64,000 nucleotides of DNA from a virus, in the IMG/VR virus record IMGVR_UViG_3300027741_000030, positions 51,656-115,655 of that record; one strand, given 5' to 3'. Below, in pieces: positions 1 to 51,744 of this stretch. Within the stretch, counting starts at the first letter, position 1; each line of letters starts with the position of its first letter. Under the pieces are notes generated by a model, which saw only the letters and a list, made by a program, of their open reading frames with translations, was not told the origin of the DNA and made no database searches. Made by a program: the position numbers and the translations under genes.

Positions 1-2605
1 ATTAGACAGCACTGGAAAAATTCCAGCAGCTCAATTAAATATTACAGAAACAATTCAAGACGTAGTTGGCTCAACGTTAGTTTCTGGAAGAGGATCAACT
101 TTTTATTATAGCGATCAAGATAATACAATAACTCTTACAGCAGGTTTAAGAGGACAAGGTTCAGTTTCCGTAACTAATGCAACAGATAATAATGATTTAA
201 TTGTTAAATTAAATCCAGTTGTTGCTGCTGATACAAAATTTACAGGACCTCTTGTTGAAGTTGGAACAGTAACAGCAACAGATGTTAATGCAACAAATGT
301 TTCAATATCTGGAAACTTAACAGTAAATGGAACAACTACAACTGTAAATTCAACAAATGTTACAATTGATGACCCAATGATCTACATTGGCGATAACAAT
401 CAATCAAATAGCCTAGATCTTGGTGTTGTAGCAGCATTTAATAATGGAACATATCAGCACTCAGGTCTTGTTCGTGATGCATCAGATGGAAAATGGAAAC
501 TTTTTTCAGGTGTAATAGCAGAACCAACAACAACAGTAGATTTTACAACGTATACAAAAGATTCTCTTGAAATTGGAGGATTGCATGCAGACTCAGCAAG
601 AATTGGAAATGTTACTAATGATGAAATTCAACATCTAGACGGAGTTAGCTCAGCAATTCAAACTCAAATTGATTCAAAGCTTTCTACAACTAGAGCAGAG
701 GCAATATATGCGCCAAAAGAATCACCTTATTTTTCTGGAACAGTAACTTTGCCAGAAGGAACAGTTACATCAGCAATGATTGCAAATGGCACAATTGTTA
801 ATGCAGATATAAATACTTATGCAGAAATTGATCAATCAAAAATTGCTAATCTTGTTACAAATCTTGCAGCAAAAGCTCCATCAGCATCTCCTACATTTAC
901 AGGCACAGTAGTTCTTCCTGCAAATACATCAATTGGAAATGTTTCATCAACAGAAATTGGTTATCTTGATGGAGTAACATCAGGAATTCAACAGCAACTT
1001 GCTCCAGTTCAAGGTTTAGTCAATTCAGTAAATACACTTGTAACTGATTTAAATTCAGCTGAAAATACAATATCTTCACTTGAATCATCTGTTACTTCAA
1101 TTAATACAACAACAAATAGCCTTCAAACACAAATTAATACAAAAGCATCAACTGCATCACTTACAGCACATGAGGCAGACACAACAAATATTCATGGCAT
1201 TGCAGATACAACTGCACTTGCTACAAAAACTTATGCAGATTCAGCAGTTTCAACTGCAGTTTCTGCACTAACAAAATCATCAGTTGGCCTTGCAAATGTT
1301 GATAACACATCAGATGCAAATAAGCCAGTATCTTCAGCAACATCAACAGCACTTGCGCTCAAAGCGTCACTTGCCTCACCAACATTTACTGGAACTGTTT
1401 CTGGTATTACAAAGTCTATGGTTGGGCTTTCAAATGTAGATAATACTGCAGATTCAGCAAAACCTGTTTCAACAGCACAGCAAACAGCACTTGATGCCAA
1501 ATTAGCGCTTGCTGGAGGAACAATGACAGGAGCACTTACACTTTCAGGTGCACCTACATCAGATCTTCATGCAGCAACTAAGTCTTACGTAGATGGAATT
1601 GCTTCTGGAATTAACTTTCATAAATCAGTTAAAATTGCAACAACAACTAACTGGTCAGCAGTATATGCAAATGGAACAAATGGTTATGGAGCAACATTAA
1701 CAGCATCCGTAAATCAATCAATTAACCCAGCAGATGGAGTAACTCTTGCTGTTGGTGATAGAATTCTTGTAAAATCACAAACAGATGCAAAGCAAAATGG
1801 TATCTATGATATAACTTCTGTGGGAGGTTCTTCTTCCAAGTGGGTTCTTACTCGTTCAGCAGATTCTGATAACAATCCAAATGGGGAAGTTGCAGGTGGA
1901 GATTTTACTTTCGTAACAGAAGGTTCTACAAATGCAAGTATTGGATTTATCTTGTCTTCACCATCAGGTGCAGCAACTCTTGGAACAGATAATATTGTTT
2001 ATACACAGTTTAACGCAGCACAAGCAGTAACTGTAGGTGCTGGTATTACTAAGTCTGGTTCAACACTTTCAATTGGAACTGGTGCCATTACATCAGATAT
2101 GATTGTAGATGGAACAATTGTTGATGCAGATATAAATGCTTCAGCAGCAATCGCACAATCTAAAATCTCAGGACTTTCAACAAGCCTAGGCTTAAAAGCT
2201 AACTTAGCAGATCCTACATTTACTGGAACAGTAACAGTTGATGCAGCAGGAGTAGCATTTACAGATGGAACTCAGACAAAAGAAGGCGTTCCATCACGGA
2301 CAACAATTATTTCAAAAACAACAGACTACACTCTTTCAAATCTTTCAGAACGTGATTCATTAATTGAAATAAATGCAGCAGGAGCTACAACATTAACAGT
2401 TCCAGCAGATTCATCAACAAACTATCCAGTAGGAACATCTTTGGATATTCTGAGAGTAGGAGCTGGAGCATTAACAGTGTCACCTGCAGCTGGCGTAACA
2501 TTAAATTACACACCAGGAAACAAGCTTCGTGCACAATGGTCATCTGCAACTCTTGTAAAGAGAGCAGCAAATACATGGGTACTTCTTGGAGACCTAACAG
2601 CTTAA
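1..2605 (+). CDS. Tail fibre-like structural protein, 5'-partial
   Basis: Frame is open from nt 2 (LDSTGKIPAAQL...), so the ATG at 377 is internal. Ala/Thr/Ser-rich, with repeats typical of phage fibres (SPTFTGTV, VGLxNVDNTxDxxKPVS, GDRILVKxQTxxxQNGIY). Confidence 0.75.
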   Translation, partial: LDSTGKIPAAQLNITETIQDVVGSTLVSGRGSTFYYSDQDNTITLTAGLRGQGSVSVTNATDNNDLIVKLNPVVAADTKFTGPLVEVGTVTATDVNATNVSISGNLTVNGTTTTVNSTNVTIDDPMIYIGDNNQSNSLDLGVVAAFNNGTYQHSGLVRDASDGKWKLFSGVIAEPTTTVDFTTYTKDSLEIGGLHADSARIGNVTNDEIQHLDGVSSAIQTQIDSKLSTTRAEAIYAPKESPYFSGTVTLPEGTVTSAMIANGTIVNADINTYAEIDQSKIANLVTNLAAKAPSASPTFTGTVVLPANTSIGNVSSTEIGYLDGVTSGIQQQLAPVQGLVNSVNTLVTDLNSAENTISSLESSVTSINTTTNSLQTQINTKASTASLTAHEADTTNIHGIADTTALATKTYADSAVSTAVSALTKSSVGLANVDNTSDANKPVSSATSTALALKASLASPTFTGTVSGITKSMVGLSNVDNTADSAKPVSTAQQTALDAKLALAGGTMTGALTLSGAPTSDLHAATKSYVDGIASGINFHKSVKIATTTNWSAVYANGTNGYGATLTASVNQSINPADGVTLAVGDRILVKSQTDAKQNGIYDITSVGGSSSKWVLTRSADSDNNPNGEVAGGDFTFVTEGSTNASIGFILSSPSGAATLGTDNIVYTQFNAAQAVTVGAGITKSGSTLSIGTGAITSDMIVDGTIVDADINASAAIAQSKISGLSTSLGLKANLADPTFTGTVTVDAAGVAFTDGTQTKEGVPSRTTIISKTTDYTLSNLSERDSLIEINAAGATTLTVPADSSTNYPVGTSLDILRVGAGALTVSPAAGVTLNYTPGNKLRAQWSSATLVKRAANTWVLLGDLTA

Positions 2606-11969: not shown

Positions 11970-12308
11970 ATGGATATCTTAAACAAAAATACTAAAATTA
12001 TTGAAGAAACCACCCTAGGGATATATGTGTGGGAAATGCCTGACGGCAGATGGATTGGAGACGACGATGGCAACTTTCTTTCGATCACGTCCAAAAAAGG
12101 TAATAGATCCAGAATCGATGCTTTGGCTAGAGAAGTTCGCTCGTTTGGTATATATGAGGGCAATCCCAAGTTCCTTTCAGGGCGTAGAAAAATTGACGAC
12201 GAAGAGTTTGAGCATCAAAACGAAAGACTCAAGTGGGGACTCACACCAGATCCTTTAGATATTGGTGTTTACAAAGACGCAATGCTTAGGGATGGTAAGG
12301 TTCAATGA
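11970..12308 (+). CDS. Hypothetical protein coupled to the portal gene
   Basis: ATGA overlap with portal; extended -10 TGGTATGAT at about 11953. Confidence 0.6.
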   Translation: MDILNKNTKIIEETTLGIYVWEMPDGRWIGDDDGNFLSITSKKGNRSRIDALAREVRSFGIYEGNPKFLSGRRKIDDEEFEHQNERLKWGLTPDPLDIGVYKDAMLRDGKVQ

Positions 12309-13891
12309 GAGCTGAATATATTGAAGATGATGAAACCTCATCAAATACTATAGATATTTCAAACAGTGCAGATTGGTTTCATTTTCAAAAATCTGAAGAG
12401 CATGACGACCCATTTAAAATTAGTCTAGATGAAATTAAAAAGCTTCGTGGCCTAGGCACCAACTTTAAAAGAAAAATAAACCGTGACTTCTCAAAAGCCT
12501 TTGTTGGAAAAGAAGGGGTAGCAACACAACAAAATTTATTGCAGCAGGCAATCAGCGGATATGCATTATTTGATTTAGTTGAGCCAACCTACAATCTTGA
12601 ATATCTTTCAAAAATATATGAAATATCAACATATAACTATGCAGCAATTAATGCAAAGGTTTCAAATATTGTTGGATTAGGATATACGTTTGCAGAAACA
12701 CCTAAAGCAAAAGATGCAATGGATCAGATTACTGATGACAAACAGCTTGAAAGAGCTCGTACAAAAATAAATAGAATTAAGAATGGCTTAGATCAATGGC
12801 TTGATGATTGTAACGAAGAAGAGTCATTTACAGAAACCCTTATAAAGGCTTACACAGACCTTGAGGCCACAGGAAACGGGTACATTGAGATAGGACGTAC
12901 AACGGGTGGAGATATAGGCTACATCGGTCATATACCAGCTAAAACAATGCGTGTGCGTAGATTCCGTGACGGCTTTATTCAATTGCTTTATGGCAAGGCT
13001 GTATTCTTCCGTAACTTTGGAGACCTAGAAACGCCTAGCCCGATTGCTGGCCAAGAAGACAGACCAAATGAGATTATTCATTTAAAGAAATATACACCAA
13101 TGAATAACTATTATGGTGTTCCAGATATTATTGCAGCACAGCAAGCTTTAGCAGGAAATGAATTTGCAGGAAGATATAACCTTGATTACTTTGAAAACAA
13201 AGCGGTTCCAAGATATATTATTACAGTTAAGGGAGCAAAGCTTTCTCCAGAGTCAGAAAGAAAATTACTTGAGTTTTTTCAGGTCGGCTTAAAAGGAAAG
13301 AATCACAGATCTCTTTACATTCCACTTCCAGCGGATACACCAGACTCAAAGACTGAATTTAAGATGGAGCCAATTGAGGCGGGAGAGCAAGAGTCCTCAT
13401 TTAACATCTATCGTAAAACAAATAGAGATGAAATCCTTTTAGCTCATCGTGTTCCTATTAATAAAATTGGAACTCCTGAAGGTGTTAATTTAGCTGTAGC
13501 AAGAGATGCGGACAAGACATTTAAAGAGCAGGTTTGTCGTCCAGCACAAGATAGACTAGAAAAGAAATTAAACTATTTAATTGCAGAAAAAACAGATGTT
13601 GTCGAATTAAAGTTTAATGAGCTAAGCCTTACAGACGAAATAACTCAAAGCCAGATAGATGAGATTTATTTAAGAATGCAGGTTATTACTCCTAACGAAG
13701 TAAGAATTAGAAAAAATATGATTCCTAGAGATGGTGGAGATGAAGTCGTTGAATTAAAACCTCAGCAGGCGGCAGACCAACAGGCCAAATCTACTGGAAA
13801 TAAAACTAGAGACCAACAAAGAGCTTCAAATGCCCCAGATAAAAATGGGGAAGGTAGAAATGCCAAGGGAGATGGTCCAAAAGTCAAATAA
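12305..13891 (+). CDS. Portal protein
   Basis: DLEATGNGYIE, EIIHLKKYTPMNNYYGVP, YFENKAVP, RDEILLAHRVP, ITPNEVR. Confidence 0.9.
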   Translation: MRAEYIEDDETSSNTIDISNSADWFHFQKSEEHDDPFKISLDEIKKLRGLGTNFKRKINRDFSKAFVGKEGVATQQNLLQQAISGYALFDLVEPTYNLEYLSKIYEISTYNYAAINAKVSNIVGLGYTFAETPKAKDAMDQITDDKQLERARTKINRIKNGLDQWLDDCNEEESFTETLIKAYTDLEATGNGYIEIGRTTGGDIGYIGHIPAKTMRVRRFRDGFIQLLYGKAVFFRNFGDLETPSPIAGQEDRPNEIIHLKKYTPMNNYYGVPDIIAAQQALAGNEFAGRYNLDYFENKAVPRYIITVKGAKLSPESERKLLEFFQVGLKGKNHRSLYIPLPADTPDSKTEFKMEPIEAGEQESSFNIYRKTNRDEILLAHRVPINKIGTPEGVNLAVARDADKTFKEQVCRPAQDRLEKKLNYLIAEKTDVVELKFNELSLTDEITQSQIDEIYLRMQVITPNEVRIRKNMIPRDGGDEVVELKPQQAADQQAKSTGNKTRDQQRASNAPDKNGEGRNAKGDGPKVK

Positions 13892-24200: not shown

Positions 24201-27200
24201 GTTCAAAAATATCATTAAGAAATGTCGGCGGATATATAGGTGGTCTTGTAAAAAGATCAAAGAAGAACTATGGAATTAGTTTTGAAGATTCAGAGCAGAT
24301 GCGTAGATATGTTGAATATCATACATCATCAAATTTTGATCAGTATGCAAAAGCGGCTTCAATTGCAAATGATGCAGAAGCATTAGTTTCTTTAGGATTA
24401 AATCCAGAACAAGCTGTAAAAGAGGCTGACCGCTGGTTTGAGGAAAGATACAATAAGGCTTTAGAAAATAACAATGGCATATTTAAGCAATCAGAATTTG
24501 ATAAAGTTACACAAGAAAGTTATTCTGATTTACAAAAACATTTAAAGAAAAGATACGGTATAACAAAACCTATCTCAAAAGAATGGCGCACACTTTCAAA
24601 GTCTGGAAGCCAGCAAATGAAAACTCAAAGCTGGAGATATGTACGTGGAAAAGTTGATTATACAATAAGAAATAAAATATTTGATTTACTTGGAGAACCA
24701 GGAAAGAGATTAAAAAAAGAAGCCGTTTTTGCAAATCAAGAACGAGCACACTACACCTCTGGAAGCACACAGGCTAAGTCTGGATTTAATTATTTAGGAC
24801 AGGCAGTAATACAGCCTTGGGAAATTAATCAGCTTGCTCACGAGCTTTCAAGATATGGAGTTATACAAAATTCATTTTCTTTGTCATCTGCTGAGAATAA
24901 ACAGCAGTTTGATAGAATTGCAAAAAATTTAGGGTACTTAGATCACGATGACATGTTGGAAAGCTTAAAGGGCAAAAAGAGCTCTCCAGCAAAACCTCCT
25001 AGAGTATTTAAAGTTGAAAATGGAATGACAGCGCCATTGCGTAAAATGGTTTCTTCTTCCCCTGCACAATTTAAAAATTACATGAGATTGCCAGCCGTAG
25101 CAAGAATGCTCGCTATGTCTGGAGCAAGATTTAATGCTGGAGGAGCAGTTGGTGGCTCAGTTCGCAAAGATAAGCATAATTATGGAAAACTCCCAGCATG
25201 GATAATCAGAAATGAAAAGATCAAAAACTTAGCCAACACTGATCCAGCACATGGTGTTTTACAAATTGGTAAATATCACCCAGCTTTGCATGTTAGAAAT
25301 CAATATGTTGCTCCTTCTATTAGATATAAGAGTAACTATGAACCATTTACATGGGATAAAGGACCTCAAGCTGGCCAAACAGTATATTCTCCAAGAAGAA
25401 CTGGTGGGGTGCCAGCATTTGAAACTGGAACAATAGAAACAAGAGCAAAGACAGCTTTATACAATTACATGCAAGGTGATTATCAAGCAATTAATGATCC
25501 AGCAGTCCAAACATACCTTTCAACTTTAAGAACTAAATTTACAGGAACACTTCATAGAGGAGTTAGAAACATATCTAGCCTTCCTCCTGTAATTAGTAAT
25601 CTAATTAAAGAAGGCAAATGGGATGAGCTTGTAGGTAAAGAATTTATTATGCGTCGCTCATCATGGAGCACAAATAAAGATACCGCAGAAGGATTTGGAC
25701 AATTACAGCTTATTGCAAATGTAAAAAATAGAAATGCTGTTCCAGCTTCTGAAATATTTCCAAACTTAACATTTCAATCTCCACAGGGACCAGTACCAGT
25801 AAACGAAAGTGAAGTTTACATGGGAGGTAAGTTTAAAGTTATTGCAGCTGATAAAAATAGATTAAAGCTACAAGCAATATATGATGCTGCTCGTGAAAAT
25901 GGCGGACCAGTAAATGCTGGAAGACCTTATCTTGTTGGAGAAAAGGGTCCAGAAATCTTTGTTCCAAAAAATGCTGGAGGTGTAATTCCAGGATATAACG
26001 TTGGCGGAATGGTAAAGTCAATGATTATGAGCACACTCGGATACACGGGTGGATCGATGCTTGGAGGAATGACAGGTTTGCCAGGCGGAGCAATGATTGG
26101 CGGAATGCTTGGCTCAATGTTTGGAATGGGCGGAGACTCATCTATGGGAAGAAGTCCAAGGCCACAACCAGAAGGCCCACGTATGGAAAATGGAATGTTT
26201 TCAAAAAACTTTTCTATGGAGCATTTTACAAAACCAATAGGTCCAGCAGGAAAACTTGCAGATAAATTAAATCTGCTTGGATTATCAGGTGGAAGATTTT
26301 CTAATGTTTTAGCAAAAATAGGACCACTTCTTGCAAGACTTCCAATGGCATTTAATCCAGTTGGGGTTGCAATTGCAGCAGTAACAGCAGCTACAGTTCT
26401 CGGGGTTAAAAGATGGAAAGACCATAATGAACATTTAAGAATTGGAATGCTTCAATATAGTTTAACTGCAGAAGCAGCAAAAAAAGCTGGAGTAAAATTT
26501 ACTGATTACAATACAAAGTTAGCAGACACTGTTGCAAATATTAAAGCAATAAGAGAAAGAAATCAACTTCTTTATGAAAGCATGGAGTCTGCTGGAATGC
26601 CAATAGAAATGACTATTGAACAATATAAAAAATTGCGTAAAGAAGTTAAAGATTCTTATGCAGATCAAATTAAATTAATTAACCAAACAAAGGGTGAAGG
26701 AAATACAAGAAAGCTTGCAGAAGACCTTAAAATTGAATTAATGGCAGCAGGCATGTCAGCAGAAGATGCAACAAAGAAAATTTGGGCAATGTTTAAACTT
26801 TCTGAAAAAGCAAAAGACGCTGCAACATTTACACTAGGAAACTCTGGCTTTAATAAAATAAAAGATGGCCAATCTGTAGCAGTCAGTGCAATATCTAGAT
26901 ACAACGCTGCTGCAAAAGAAGGCGGGCGTGAAGGCGCAGGTGCAGTACAAACTGGACTAACATCAATAGATGCTGGCATACAAGACATGATTGCTAGAAG
27001 TAAAAAAGCAGCAAAAGCAGATAAGTCTGGAAACACAAAAGTATTAACTGAATATCAGGCACAAGAAGCTATGCTTAATAAATTAAATTCTCTTGAGTCA
27101 TCAAAAGCAAGATTAACAAAAGCAACAAGAGATGAAATGATTAAGCAAAACCCAGAACTTAAAAAGATTATTAATCCACTAGACACAATTGTAAGTCTAT

Positions 27201-28708
27201 GGGGAAAGATGAATCTTGCAGCAAAAGGCTTTACAGGTAATTTAGAAGCTCTAGGTCCAAAAGCAGTTGAAACATTATCTAAGATTGCTGATGCTGTTTC
27301 TGAAGCAACAGCTTCTTCAAACAAAACTGGACTATTAAAAGATCAATATGCAATGCTTGATAAATTAACTGCACAACAAAAGGCGTTAATGAAGGCTGCA
27401 AAAGGACAAAGCGTAGCACAGCAAATAAGTACTAAAGATCAACTTAAAGCTCTTCAGGCACAAATTGATGCAAACAATAAACTTGCGGATGCAAGATTAA
27501 AAGCTCTTGATGCTGCAAAACAAGAAGGAGATATAGCAAGAGAAATTGCTAAGAAGCAAGCAGAGTATGATGCTGCCTTAGCAACAGGTAATTCAGCTGC
27601 AGCACAACAGGCAAGCTTAGATATTCAAGGGCTTCAATCAGATCAGCAATATCTTGCACAGAAAAAAGCAATTGAAGATGCGCTTAAATTACAAAATGCA
27701 CCACTTGAAGCAAAAATAAAAGCAATTAACGAAGGTCAAGAAAAACTTTCAAATCAAGCAGCCCTTGCAGCTGAAAGTTTAGGAAAAATTAATGAAAAGA
27801 TAGCAACACAAAAACAAAAAATTGATGACGTTAATTCAGCAATGACAACATTTAGAATAAATGCAATCGCAGCTGGCAAAACTCTTGAAGAGTATGCTTT
27901 GACCAAAGAAGGAAAACAAGATGCTGCAGCAGTTGTAGGTGCATCAAAGACAGCGGGAATAAAAGTGCCTACCAGTGGCGGCGGTCATTACGAAGGAAGC
28001 ACATTTGTTCCAGACAAAAAGAATGTTGGATCACAAGCACTAGACTTAGTCAATCAGACTGAAGATGCTGTAGCCTCAGCTCTATCCTCAAAGGGCATTC
28101 AAATGGGTAGCGGAGACATCTACATTGTTGGAAAAGATGGAAAGAAAACAAAAGTTGATGCAACTTCATATCAAGATGGTAAAAAATCTAGTGCAGGTAT
28201 AAACAAATCCATGGTAAATGGAAAAGAAAAACTATCTGTTCAAGCATTGCAATTAACTGCAGAAAAAATACCTACAAAACAGGGAACAGAATTTTTTATT
28301 AAAGACCAAAAATACAAGATTACTGGGCCAGTGGGTTCTAACGGATATCTTCCAATTGAAAAAGCTGGATACGGAACAATGAATCTAAATCCAAGAATTC
28401 CTACAATTGTTGGAGACAGAGGCCCAGAGCTAGCATTTGGCGGAATGATTATTCCTAATATGGCTAAGGTGCCATTTTCTTCTCCAAGATATGATGTAAA
28501 TAAAGCAAATCTTAGATTTGAATCAATGCGTGATAGTTCAAGCGGAAGCGTAATTAATCTTACTCAAAACATTTATCCTTCAGACGGAATGAATACAGAA
28601 GCATTTGTAAGACAAGTTGTTCAGCAAACAAAGCAAGCTATTGGACAAGATACAAAATTAAATGCTAAAATGGTAGGAAATTCAATGAATGTGAGTATTA
28701 GATCATGA
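21215..28708 (+). CDS. Tape measure protein with inserted ADP-ribosyltransferase-like domain
   Basis: 2497 aa following the chaperones; TP901-like core (LTVGLTVPL, AENQTSTSLxDL); GGxV...YLVGEKGPE motifs; LHRG/SSWST/ESE at 25550-25813. Confidence 0.9.
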   Translation: MADNLITTNITANADFTSLKTQLAAVTAQLIKLQETTAGTNAKLANQIAVMNKSFAETMRSTGQFSSHFVSLTSDVEKFGKNLDRGRLKLNDYYNTWNGHTKKTSNLIKDLAKQQVMLEQSIIQPLGKNAQGLMQYNIMVAKGLDEIKNKTALARQEAAIMNKVMQDGAGQLINWGKNTQWAGRQLTVGLTVPLVAFGAAAQKAFREADAELVRLTKVYGGLAATSSQDLAQVRKDVSATAKEIASSYGVAYKDTISLAADLAATGKQGNDLLQATQQTTRLAVLGEVDRQDAMKATLAIQNAFKQNTDQLTESIDFLNAVENQTSTSLADLTEAIPKAGPVIKSLGGDVKDLALYLTAMKEGGVNAAEGANAIKSAMASLINPTKVATEMFASFGIDLRGIVTKDAGDLTQTILDLQSALDGLNPLDKSRAIEQLFGKFQFARMSALFENLGKSGSQTLQVMDLMKASASDLANISSRELKLMTESASGQFKRAWASVQADLASTGEQFLRVSTKVLNVVDKIIKFFENLPKPIKTFLNVLGGITAVTGPIIMLTGVLGNFLGYIIKGIFHLKQLGKGGQGFKLLTPEIMAAEAAAKGLATSFYSDSEATIVLSNAVNTLAESFANLEMKANAAKVAVQPAVTTVAGNAVAPGVFGQRVVDKNNPLIGAPYSRDMSHLIPTQMPQAGTIFGTVPGAGPVNVRIGKNPQAYMDQDMPKIPGVTSVNNVSTGIVASEAAKWHAMTAAIAMQSEAEIKLLKTEVMATGTVTESLSQSYQALLPQFSEITQLAAAETKAIVADLQASKITVDEARAKVIQMNATVEAMLAETAAATAAGMGRTVNLTTVPLTSQPVVDPATGKSNMKEMFHKGTTKEIADRIARALGGVRTSGAGYNIHTTKPQQLNSGGRVYNPSRDGNIVPGDTSINYDNTPAVLQEGGYVLNQGASKNNPDLVSLAKNSRNSGGKIVPAVVTPGETYFPPEVAETIMPTLEKANKGSKISLRNVGGYIGGLVKRSKKNYGISFEDSEQMRRYVEYHTSSNFDQYAKAASIANDAEALVSLGLNPEQAVKEADRWFEERYNKALENNNGIFKQSEFDKVTQESYSDLQKHLKKRYGITKPISKEWRTLSKSGSQQMKTQSWRYVRGKVDYTIRNKIFDLLGEPGKRLKKEAVFANQERAHYTSGSTQAKSGFNYLGQAVIQPWEINQLAHELSRYGVIQNSFSLSSAENKQQFDRIAKNLGYLDHDDMLESLKGKKSSPAKPPRVFKVENGMTAPLRKMVSSSPAQFKNYMRLPAVARMLAMSGARFNAGGAVGGSVRKDKHNYGKLPAWIIRNEKIKNLANTDPAHGVLQIGKYHPALHVRNQYVAPSIRYKSNYEPFTWDKGPQAGQTVYSPRRTGGVPAFETGTIETRAKTALYNYMQGDYQAINDPAVQTYLSTLRTKFTGTLHRGVRNISSLPPVISNLIKEGKWDELVGKEFIMRRSSWSTNKDTAEGFGQLQLIANVKNRNAVPASEIFPNLTFQSPQGPVPVNESEVYMGGKFKVIAADKNRLKLQAIYDAARENGGPVNAGRPYLVGEKGPEIFVPKNAGGVIPGYNVGGMVKSMIMSTLGYTGGSMLGGMTGLPGGAMIGGMLGSMFGMGGDSSMGRSPRPQPEGPRMENGMFSKNFSMEHFTKPIGPAGKLADKLNLLGLSGGRFSNVLAKIGPLLARLPMAFNPVGVAIAAVTAATVLGVKRWKDHNEHLRIGMLQYSLTAEAAKKAGVKFTDYNTKLADTVANIKAIRERNQLLYESMESAGMPIEMTIEQYKKLRKEVKDSYADQIKLINQTKGEGNTRKLAEDLKIELMAAGMSAEDATKKIWAMFKLSEKAKDAATFTLGNSGFNKIKDGQSVAVSAISRYNAAAKEGGREGAGAVQTGLTSIDAGIQDMIARSKKAAKADKSGNTKVLTEYQAQEAMLNKLNSLESSKARLTKATRDEMIKQNPELKKIINPLDTIVSLWGKMNLAAKGFTGNLEALGPKAVETLSKIADAVSEATASSNKTGLLKDQYAMLDKLTAQQKALMKAAKGQSVAQQISTKDQLKALQAQIDANNKLADARLKALDAAKQEGDIAREIAKKQAEYDAALATGNSAAAQQASLDIQGLQSDQQYLAQKKAIEDALKLQNAPLEAKIKAINEGQEKLSNQAALAAESLGKINEKIATQKQKIDDVNSAMTTFRINAIAAGKTLEEYALTKEGKQDAAAVVGASKTAGIKVPTSGGGHYEGSTFVPDKKNVGSQALDLVNQTEDAVASALSSKGIQMGSGDIYIVGKDGKKTKVDATSYQDGKKSSAGINKSMVNGKEKLSVQALQLTAEKIPTKQGTEFFIKDQKYKITGPVGSNGYLPIEKAGYGTMNLNPRIPTIVGDRGPELAFGGMIIPNMAKVPFSSPRYDVNKANLRFESMRDSSSGSVINLTQNIYPSDGMNTEAFVRQVVQQTKQAIGQDTKLNAKMVGNSMNVSIRS

Positions 28709-51604: not shown

Positions 51605-51744
51605 AGCTGTATCAGAGTAAAGACTGGCTATATAGAAGATATGTAGTTCAAAAGAAAAATGTGACAGAGATTGCTAAAGAGTGTAATGTGTCTGCTATGA
51701 CTATACAGAGATATTTAGAAAAATTTAATTTGATGAGGAAATAA
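51601..51744 (+). CDS. 47-aa HTH protein (absent from ORF track)
   Basis: MKLYQSKDWLYRRYVVQKKNVTEIAKECNVSAMTIQRYLEKF; coupled at both ends. Confidence 0.7.
   Translation: MKLYQSKDWLYRRYVVQKKNVTEIAKECNVSAMTIQRYLEKFNLMRK

Follow-up and report, generated by a model that had tools for sequence, protein, structure and literature searches.

To our knowledge, the phage ADP-ribosyltransferases (ARTs) known to work ahead of phage gene expression are all packaged in the head (such as T4 Alt and fusions to MuF), and the enzymes known to be embedded in tape measure proteins (TMPs) are all cell-wall hydrolases. Virion-borne ARTs have been described as fusions of VIP2 to MuF (PMC7302621) and as polyvalent proteins (PMC9503650). 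In the TMP of mycobacteriophage TM4, a peptidoglycan-hydrolase motif acts at infection, and assembly of the tail as such does not require it (PMC1796659). The word 'tape' is absent from a 2022 survey of NAD/ADP-ribose systems in 21,191 viral proteomes (PMC9503650), and the full-text papers that we searched on tape measure and ADP-ribosyltransferase yielded no account of an ART situated within a TMP. Here, we present a predicted ART domain that lies within the TMP of an uncultured freshwater phage, IMG/VR virus record IMGVR_UViG_3300027741_000030, which is rated complete at 115,655 bp. The DNA analysed, called the window below, is a stretch of 64,000 nucleotides (positions 51,656 to 115,655 of the record), and nucleotide positions refer to it.

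The region in question, 25187-25891 on the plus strand, translates free of stops into residues 1325-1559 of a single open reading frame (ORF) that carries the whole ART region (Table 1). This ORF is a TMP, as is evident from Pfam, TIGR01760, PHROGs, annotated homologues and gene order. PF10145 (PhageMin_Tail) matches residues 239-438 with an E-value of 2.9e-28, TIGR01760 matches with an E-value of 9e-31, nine PHROG TMP families match the ORF (best E 6e-120), and residues 6-698 are ~32% identical to annotated TMPs of ~130-kb Streptomyces phages. In the gene order, the ORF comes after major tail and chaperone-like genes and before distal/minor tail proteins. The embedding of an ART domain in the TMP, claimed in a preliminary description made from the sequence alone, is thus borne out, and translation reproduces the peptides and numbering given there (L1446-H-R1448-G, E1531 and E1533). 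The domain is internal to the TMP, being neither a stand-alone head protein nor a fusion to MuF, portal or any other head protein.

Structure prediction, one of the checks proposed in the preliminary description, gave an ART fold for this region, both by AlphaFold2 and by the fold searches that followed. AlphaFold2 run on a 36-sequence alignment produced a model with a mean predicted local distance difference test (pLDDT) score of 78.6, reaching 86-95 in the core blocks, while the single-sequence model was unusable (pLDDT 38.7); model numbering plus 1324 gives TMP numbering. The predicted model shows the split β-sandwich with an NAD+ cleft of the ART fold, preceded by an N-terminal extension predicted to consist of short strands (pLDDT 56-86). 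In the PDB, Foldseek found 69 chains with E≤1e-3, all the listed matches being ARTs, and the matches in a viral structure library were phage ARTs, ModA/ModB homologues and MuF-ART fusions. All these fold matches span model residues 82-235, which correspond to TMP residues 1405-1559. The nearest structures belong to the C3/VIP2/iota/Vis/Tre1 group and the other branches of the superfamily come far below in the fold search (Scabin 4.3, diphtheria toxin 3.2, Tpt1 3.2, Arr 2.5 and RhsP2 2.3). Assignment of the modelled domain to the ART fold is therefore close to certain. The earlier classification as 'cholera-toxin/VIP2/T4 Alt-type' stands as regards the R-S-ExE ART fold and the VIP2 group; cholera toxin is not the nearest structure, and the likeness to T4 Alt was not detected by profile comparison, T4 ModB being weakly similar (E-values are given below).

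Binary actin-modifying toxins are among the structural neighbours, which raises the question of an anti-eukaryote 'Trojan horse' toxin that would kill protist grazers when they swallow infected cells. Such an anti-grazer role was proposed by Kavagutti et al. (2019) for the VIP2-like ARTs of 24 freshwater phages, some of them predicted to infect Actinobacteria (PMC6802176). For the present domain this role appears highly improbable, given its internal position in a TMP and the apparent absence of binary-toxin features. The alignments with the A components of binary toxins cover only their C-terminal catalytic domain (model residues 82-232 against chain residues 237-413).

Invariance was scored across 42 domain sequences down to ~30% identity, and R1448, S1483, E1531 and E1533 were all found to be invariant (counts in Table 1), the NAD-site motifs being the best-conserved parts of the domain. 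The arginine motif reads L-H-R1448-G here and [YF]-R-G in relatives. The serine motif, which had been placed at S1482, starts one residue later, at S1483 (position 1482 is S or A); its third position is S or T in relatives, and W or F stands in place of the usual T. In the predicted model, R1448 lies at the end of the first core strand (116-126, model numbering), S-W-S at the end of strand 152-161 just ahead of a helix, and E-x-E where strand 209-222 begins after a long loop; all three thus occupy the canonical R, S-T-S and E-x-E positions of an ART. Profile-profile alignment with hhalign pairs R1448 with R73 of ModB and E1531/E1533 with its E171-Q-E173 (E171/E173), the two glutamates being also aligned to E163-Q-E165 of ModA, and S-W-S falls on the D-S-F-T-T-S stretch of ModB, within one residue of register. 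The corresponding ModB mutant, R73A, is catalytically dead (PMC10468400). Since the R/S-x-S/E-x-E pattern is invariant down to ~30% identity and is found at the expected structural elements of the model, it is not a product of chance.

Judged by these residues, the domain is probably competent for catalysis. It could instead be a catalytically silent relic, retained by the tail solely as a spacer, plug or folding unit, an idea to which the optional nature of the cassette (see below) lends something, since the tail can be built without the ART, as do the many TMP centres of the family that hold other unrecognisable inserts. We consider it very unlikely, because R, S, E and E have been kept invariant in 41-42 sequences that are otherwise 30-40% identical.

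Fold neighbours with an E-x-E motif and a known target all modify arginine (iota, VIP2, C2, Vis, Certhrax, ExoS, HopU1, Tre1 and ART2.2), and C3, with Q-x-E, targets asparagine. Since the neighbours that share E-x-E behave in this way, the domain is, by analogy, most likely an arginine-specific protein ART. The ART fold might also serve another substrate than protein arginine, as an NAD+ glycohydrolase or as a modifier of nucleic acids or small molecules: R-S-E enzymes include NADases and DNA/RNA modifiers (Scabin, pierisin), the fold does not reveal the substrate, and ModB also transfers NAD-capped RNA (PMC10468400). The ranking of the fold matches disfavours this option and makes it quite unlikely.

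How the domain sits in its carrier was examined in the TMP family. A search of IMG/VR with the N-terminal 530 residues of the TMP yielded at least 594 stretches, the best 80 of which (65-92% identical, loci L056-L135) were taken with 10 kb of flank; 56 of these 80 have an ORF longer than 1,700 aa, and the distribution counts refer to them. The ART is present in seven of these 56 long relatives, whose N-termini are 65-92% identical, and the four closest by N-terminus among the best 80 (90-92% identical) are without it. In pairwise comparisons, six ART-less relatives lose similarity between residues 996 and 1312 and regain it exactly at residue 1560. L061 remains similar up to residue 1312, so that only residues 1313-1559 are replaced in it, by ~490 unrelated residues. 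A segment of ~245 residues (approximately 1313-1559) is thus a self-contained, exchangeable cassette that is optional in the TMP family. The coordinates of the preliminary description correspond to a natural module, whose borders fall at the second of two delimiter repeats on the left and at the start of the PYLVGExGPE element on the right. GC content, overall and at third codon positions (GC3), gave no sign of a recent foreign origin, the GC3 of the cassette (0.174) being that of the rest of the gene. The patchy distribution and the sharp borders fit a role in an arms race, for takeover or anti-defence, better than a structural role.

The delimiter repeats are of the type GG-x-[IV]-GG...K-x-N-Y-G (GG-Y-I-GG...K-N-Y-G in the copy listed at residues 1005-1020). 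Of 55 long relatives, 10 have one or two copies, several of them with a spacing of ~300 aa around a unit resembling cassette 1; with so few carriers, the delimiter was rejected as a universal cassette border. Cassette 1 itself, of ~300 residues, is directly upstream of the ART cassette. Neither it nor its flanks match Pfam, it has no similarity in any of 43 ART-bearing database representatives, and it is fully similar only to the IMG/VR relatives L060 and L078 and partially to L131, L057 and L061.

The extension in front of the catalytic core, detected only in ART-bearing TMPs, has an invariant motif of its own, N-x-D-P-x-H-G-x-L-x-I-G (residues 1341-1352; 25235-25270, plus strand), in which N17, D19, P20, H22, G23 and G28 (domain numbering) are invariant. 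The motif sits ~60 residues ahead of the ART core. We take it to resemble D-P-x-G-L, the motif for autoproteolysis found ahead of the toxin tips of Rhs proteins, and by that analogy it could be a candidate processing site freeing the enzyme.

Relatives of the ART domain itself were sought with an exhaustive phmmer scan of 1.84 billion representatives, which gave 43; DNA loci of relatives were collected from IMG/VR and JGI metagenome contigs, and 36 sequences were aligned for the structure model. In these 43 the ART almost always occupies approximately residues 1200-1600 of proteins of 2,000-3,700 aa with TMP N-termini. A profile search for short stand-alone forms found only three proteins, of 127-399 aa and possibly cut at contig ends. 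One relative, P0035 (3,678 aa), has CHAP (E 1.6e-6) and LysM (E 6.5e-12) matches at residues 2493-2687, towards its C-terminal end, besides its ART, so that one ruler protein can carry a wall hydrolase together with a putative intracellular enzyme. The TMP family hence carries other enzymes too, and CHAP/LysM fits a Gram-positive host.

A Y-[LIVM]-V-G-E-x-G-P-E element is found within ~15 residues after the ART in nearly all ART-bearing relatives; here it forms part of residues 1569-1584 (G-R-P-Y-L-V-G-E-K-G-P-E-I-F-V-P), and PHROG 30701/1538 matches cover residues 1554-1598. It is followed by a glycine zipper and a transmembrane-like segment (Table 1). Glycine zippers are common to TMPs and to Tde1, a type VI secretion system (T6SS) effector, and are needed for Tde1 to cross the target membrane (PMC10240207). 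For lambda, HK97 and T5, work cited in that paper (PMC10240207) has established that the TMP is ejected and that a channel is formed. A G-[ED]-x-G-P-E motif was observed twice in the TMP, first just past the ART cassette and again ~100 residues short of the C-terminus, and the protein may have arisen by the joining of two TMP-like units.

The course of events that we infer, from ejection and topology to catalytic activity, arginine specificity and biological role, would run as follows. As a segment of the TMP, the ART would be incorporated into the tail and would exit the tail tube with it when infection begins. The glycine zipper and the hydrophobic segments directly after the ART might then hold it at the cytoplasmic membrane or pass it through. 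There, ahead of the expression of any phage gene, the ART would use host NAD+ to modify one or several host proteins by ADP-ribosylation, arginine being the most likely acceptor, which would serve takeover of the cell or neutralize a defence. By analogy with the systems cited above, we favour this full scenario, in which an active ART leaves the tail with the TMP and modifies host proteins early, with moderate confidence.

Several points weigh against it. The structure is only predicted, and pLDDT is low in the N-terminal 80 residues and in the loop before E-x-E (56-69). Sequence methods alone place the domain in no curated ART family. Pfam ADPrib_exo_Tox (PF03496) matches it with 12.6 bits (E 0.089), below the gathering cut-off of 23.4 and over profile positions 19-63 only, the region of the R motif; this stretch is the sole match to the profile in the whole phage genome, and three of 27 relatives give any match (best E 0.065). 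Because the score is below the threshold and so few relatives match, we file the domain outside the curated family: it is a divergent member of the R-S-E fold clade, not of PF03496 as curated. NCBIfam and PHROGs have nothing for it, the matches of phmmer and of two profile searches to PDB sequences were all at chance level (E>0.4), and a feature search of the ESM Atlas was uninformative, with only unnamed clusters and one DUF4765 cluster. The hhalign comparison of the core profile with T4 ModB extends over 125 columns with an E-value of 2.4e-4 at a probability of only 44%, and the comparisons with T4 Alt (E 0.67) and ModA (E 0.2) are not significant. The ART is also dispensable for the TMP family, 49 of the 56 long relatives being without it. 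Finally, there is a physical difficulty: a folded domain of 17-27 kDa, probably in several copies, must fit into the narrow tail tube or unfold there, and from the middle of the TMP it would have to find a route to cytoplasmic NAD+.

This last difficulty speaks for a reading in which the enzyme acts late, in the producing cell. The TMP is made late in infection, in a cytoplasm that contains NAD+, and the ART could act there, on host or phage proteins or on itself, its presence in the virion being incidental or structural. In the 115-kb phage genome, no gene for an ADP-ribosylhydrolase (PF03747) or a macrodomain (PF01661) that would restrain the enzyme was found, which also speaks for such a late role. 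A late enzyme, however, has no need of fusion into a ruler protein, and the cassette always stands directly before the PYLVGExGPE and glycine-zipper elements, a context that suits delivery better than the cytoplasm. We therefore regard action in the producing cell as unlikely and retain early delivery as the preferred reading.

The observations on the cassette also admit a broader interpretation. Despite N-termini that are 65-92% identical, ORF lengths in the TMP family range from ~2,040 to >3,860 aa, and the variable centre from ~200 to 830 residues. In 10 ART-less relatives the variable centre was scanned against Pfam and had no match, and single-linkage clustering of the centres was uninformative, nearly all merging via shared linkers. 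It is conceivable, and we put it forward tentatively, that the centre of this TMP family is a general effector slot of which the ART is only the first readable cargo. The slot might be framed by the conserved N-terminal ruler part and by PYLVGExGPE and the glycine zipper as a translocation element, and different phages would perhaps insert different cargo domains, none of them recognized by Pfam so far. Were this so, the tails of siphoviruses would work as polymorphic devices for the injection of proteins, in analogy to Rhs/T6SS toxins, and new enzymes for takeover or anti-defence would be stored in the inserts that cannot yet be read.

Table 1. Features of the tape measure protein and of its ART cassette, with positions in the window and residues of the TMP.
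Feature	Nucleotides	Residues	Strand	Basis
TMP ORF, 2,497 aa	21215..28708		+	PF10145, TIGR01760, PHROGs, gene order
Conserved TMP N-terminal domain		1-530		
First hydrophobic segment	22817..22927	535-571	+	Kyte-Doolittle window means reaching 1.89
Conserved helical and linker part		600-1011		
Delimiter copy 1, GGYIGGLVKRSKKNYG	24227..24274	1005-1020	+	Regular-expression match
Cassette 1, unrecognised domain in the variable centre	24248..25150	1012-1312	+	Bounded by the two delimiter copies
Delimiter copy 2, GGAVGGSVRKDKHNYG, left border of the ART cassette	25139..25186	1309-1324	+	Regular-expression match; similarity of L061 ends at residue 1312
N-terminal extension of the ART cassette, β-rich	25187..25426	1325-1404	+	Short strands in the model
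Predicted ART catalytic core	25427..25891	1405-1559	+	Fold matches
R1448 codon, [YFH]-R-G motif on strand β1	25556..25558	1448	+	Invariant in 41/41; aligned to ModB R73
S1483-W1484-S1485, counterpart of S-T-S	25661..25669	1483-1485	+	S1483 invariant in 42/42
E1531-S-E1533, E-x-E motif	25805..25813	1531-1533	+	Both Glu invariant in 42/42
GRPYLVGEKGPEIFVP motif, first conserved element past the cassette	25919..25966	1569-1584	+	Homology to ART-less relatives from residue 1560
Glycine zipper, seven overlapping GxxxGxxxG	25979..26125	1589-1637	+	Conserved in 34/43 relatives
Second hydrophobic, transmembrane-like segment	26318..26416	1702-1734	+	Kyte-Doolittle means reaching 1.78
Ala/Lys/Glu-rich, probably helical ruler part	26495..28114	1761-2300	+	Composition; conserved in 33/43 relatives
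Second G-D-R-G-P-E motif, near the C-terminus	28412..28429	2400-2405	+	Translation; second copy in several relatives too

Upstream of the TMP, PHROG assignments identify a portal, a protease, a head protein, an adaptor and an Ig-domain protein, and downstream of it lies a minor tail protein of 1,138 aa. The portal (12305-13891) shares 56-58% identity with its counterparts in Streptomyces phages of 121-134 kb such as BillNye, Muntaha and StarPlatinum, and the G+C content of the window is only ~35%. The phage may represent a low-GC freshwater branch of the BillNye/Muntaha/StarPlatinum group of actinophages. Its hosts, as far as portal similarity and the 35% G+C alone can tell, are likely low-GC freshwater Actinobacteria, which are abundant and poorly studied. 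No relative of the ART domain was found among 185,579 species genomes, which therefore offer no prophage and no clue to the host, and the domain has no DNA or protein match in GenBank phages, so that no cultured phage with the ART cassette was found.

If an NAD-dependent intracellular enzyme is indeed part of the ruler protein, then a part of the TMP would have to reach the cytoplasm in active form, and tails, not only heads, would deliver effectors. The sharp borders make the cassette a concrete, testable module for which the ART-less relatives are a natural comparison set, and these relatives also supply inserts of unrecognised function in the same slot.

Four groups of known systems can be set beside this locus. 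The first is the R-S-E clade of toxins, namely C3, VIP2, iota Ia, C2-I, CDTa, Certhrax, Vis, ExoS, HopU1, Tre1 and a Listeria ART (PDB 8za7), which the TMP domain resembles in fold. It is, however, only 12-20% identical to them, falls below the Pfam threshold, has S-W-S for S-T-S and adds at its N-terminus a β-rich stretch of 80 residues in which a further motif is invariant. Moreover, it forms an internal segment of a phage tail protein and is not a secreted or secretion-system toxin. The second group comprises T4 Alt and ModB, the MuF fusions and the polyvalent proteins, which are likewise phage-encoded ARTs of the R-S-ExE type; ModB can be aligned across the whole core of the TMP domain with its catalytic residues matched, and Alt, the MuF fusions and the polyvalent proteins travel in the virion and are presumed to be injected. 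They are, however, internal to the head or fused to head, portal or MuF proteins, whereas the domain described here lies inside the TMP of the tail.

The third group is formed by the TM4 motif and the CHAP/LysM domains of P0035, which are likewise enzyme domains placed in frame inside a ruler protein. Their substrate is the cell wall, on the outer side of the membrane, and they require no cofactor, whereas an ART depends on NAD+ from the cytoplasm and on a target inside the cell. With polymorphic toxins (Rhs/T6SS, contact-dependent inhibition and MuF systems), finally, it has in common a conserved delivery scaffold, an exchangeable effector module and sharp recombination borders, and ART modules are common cargo in polymorphic toxin systems. 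Unlike in those systems, the variable module is internal and not C-terminal, the scaffold is a structural protein of the virion, and no immunity gene was found in the 115-kb genome with the two families searched (PF03747 and PF01661). What is known, then, is the enzyme class and the strategy of a pre-made virion enzyme; what is new is the TMP as carrier, the topological problem that this poses and the ART as a swappable cassette.

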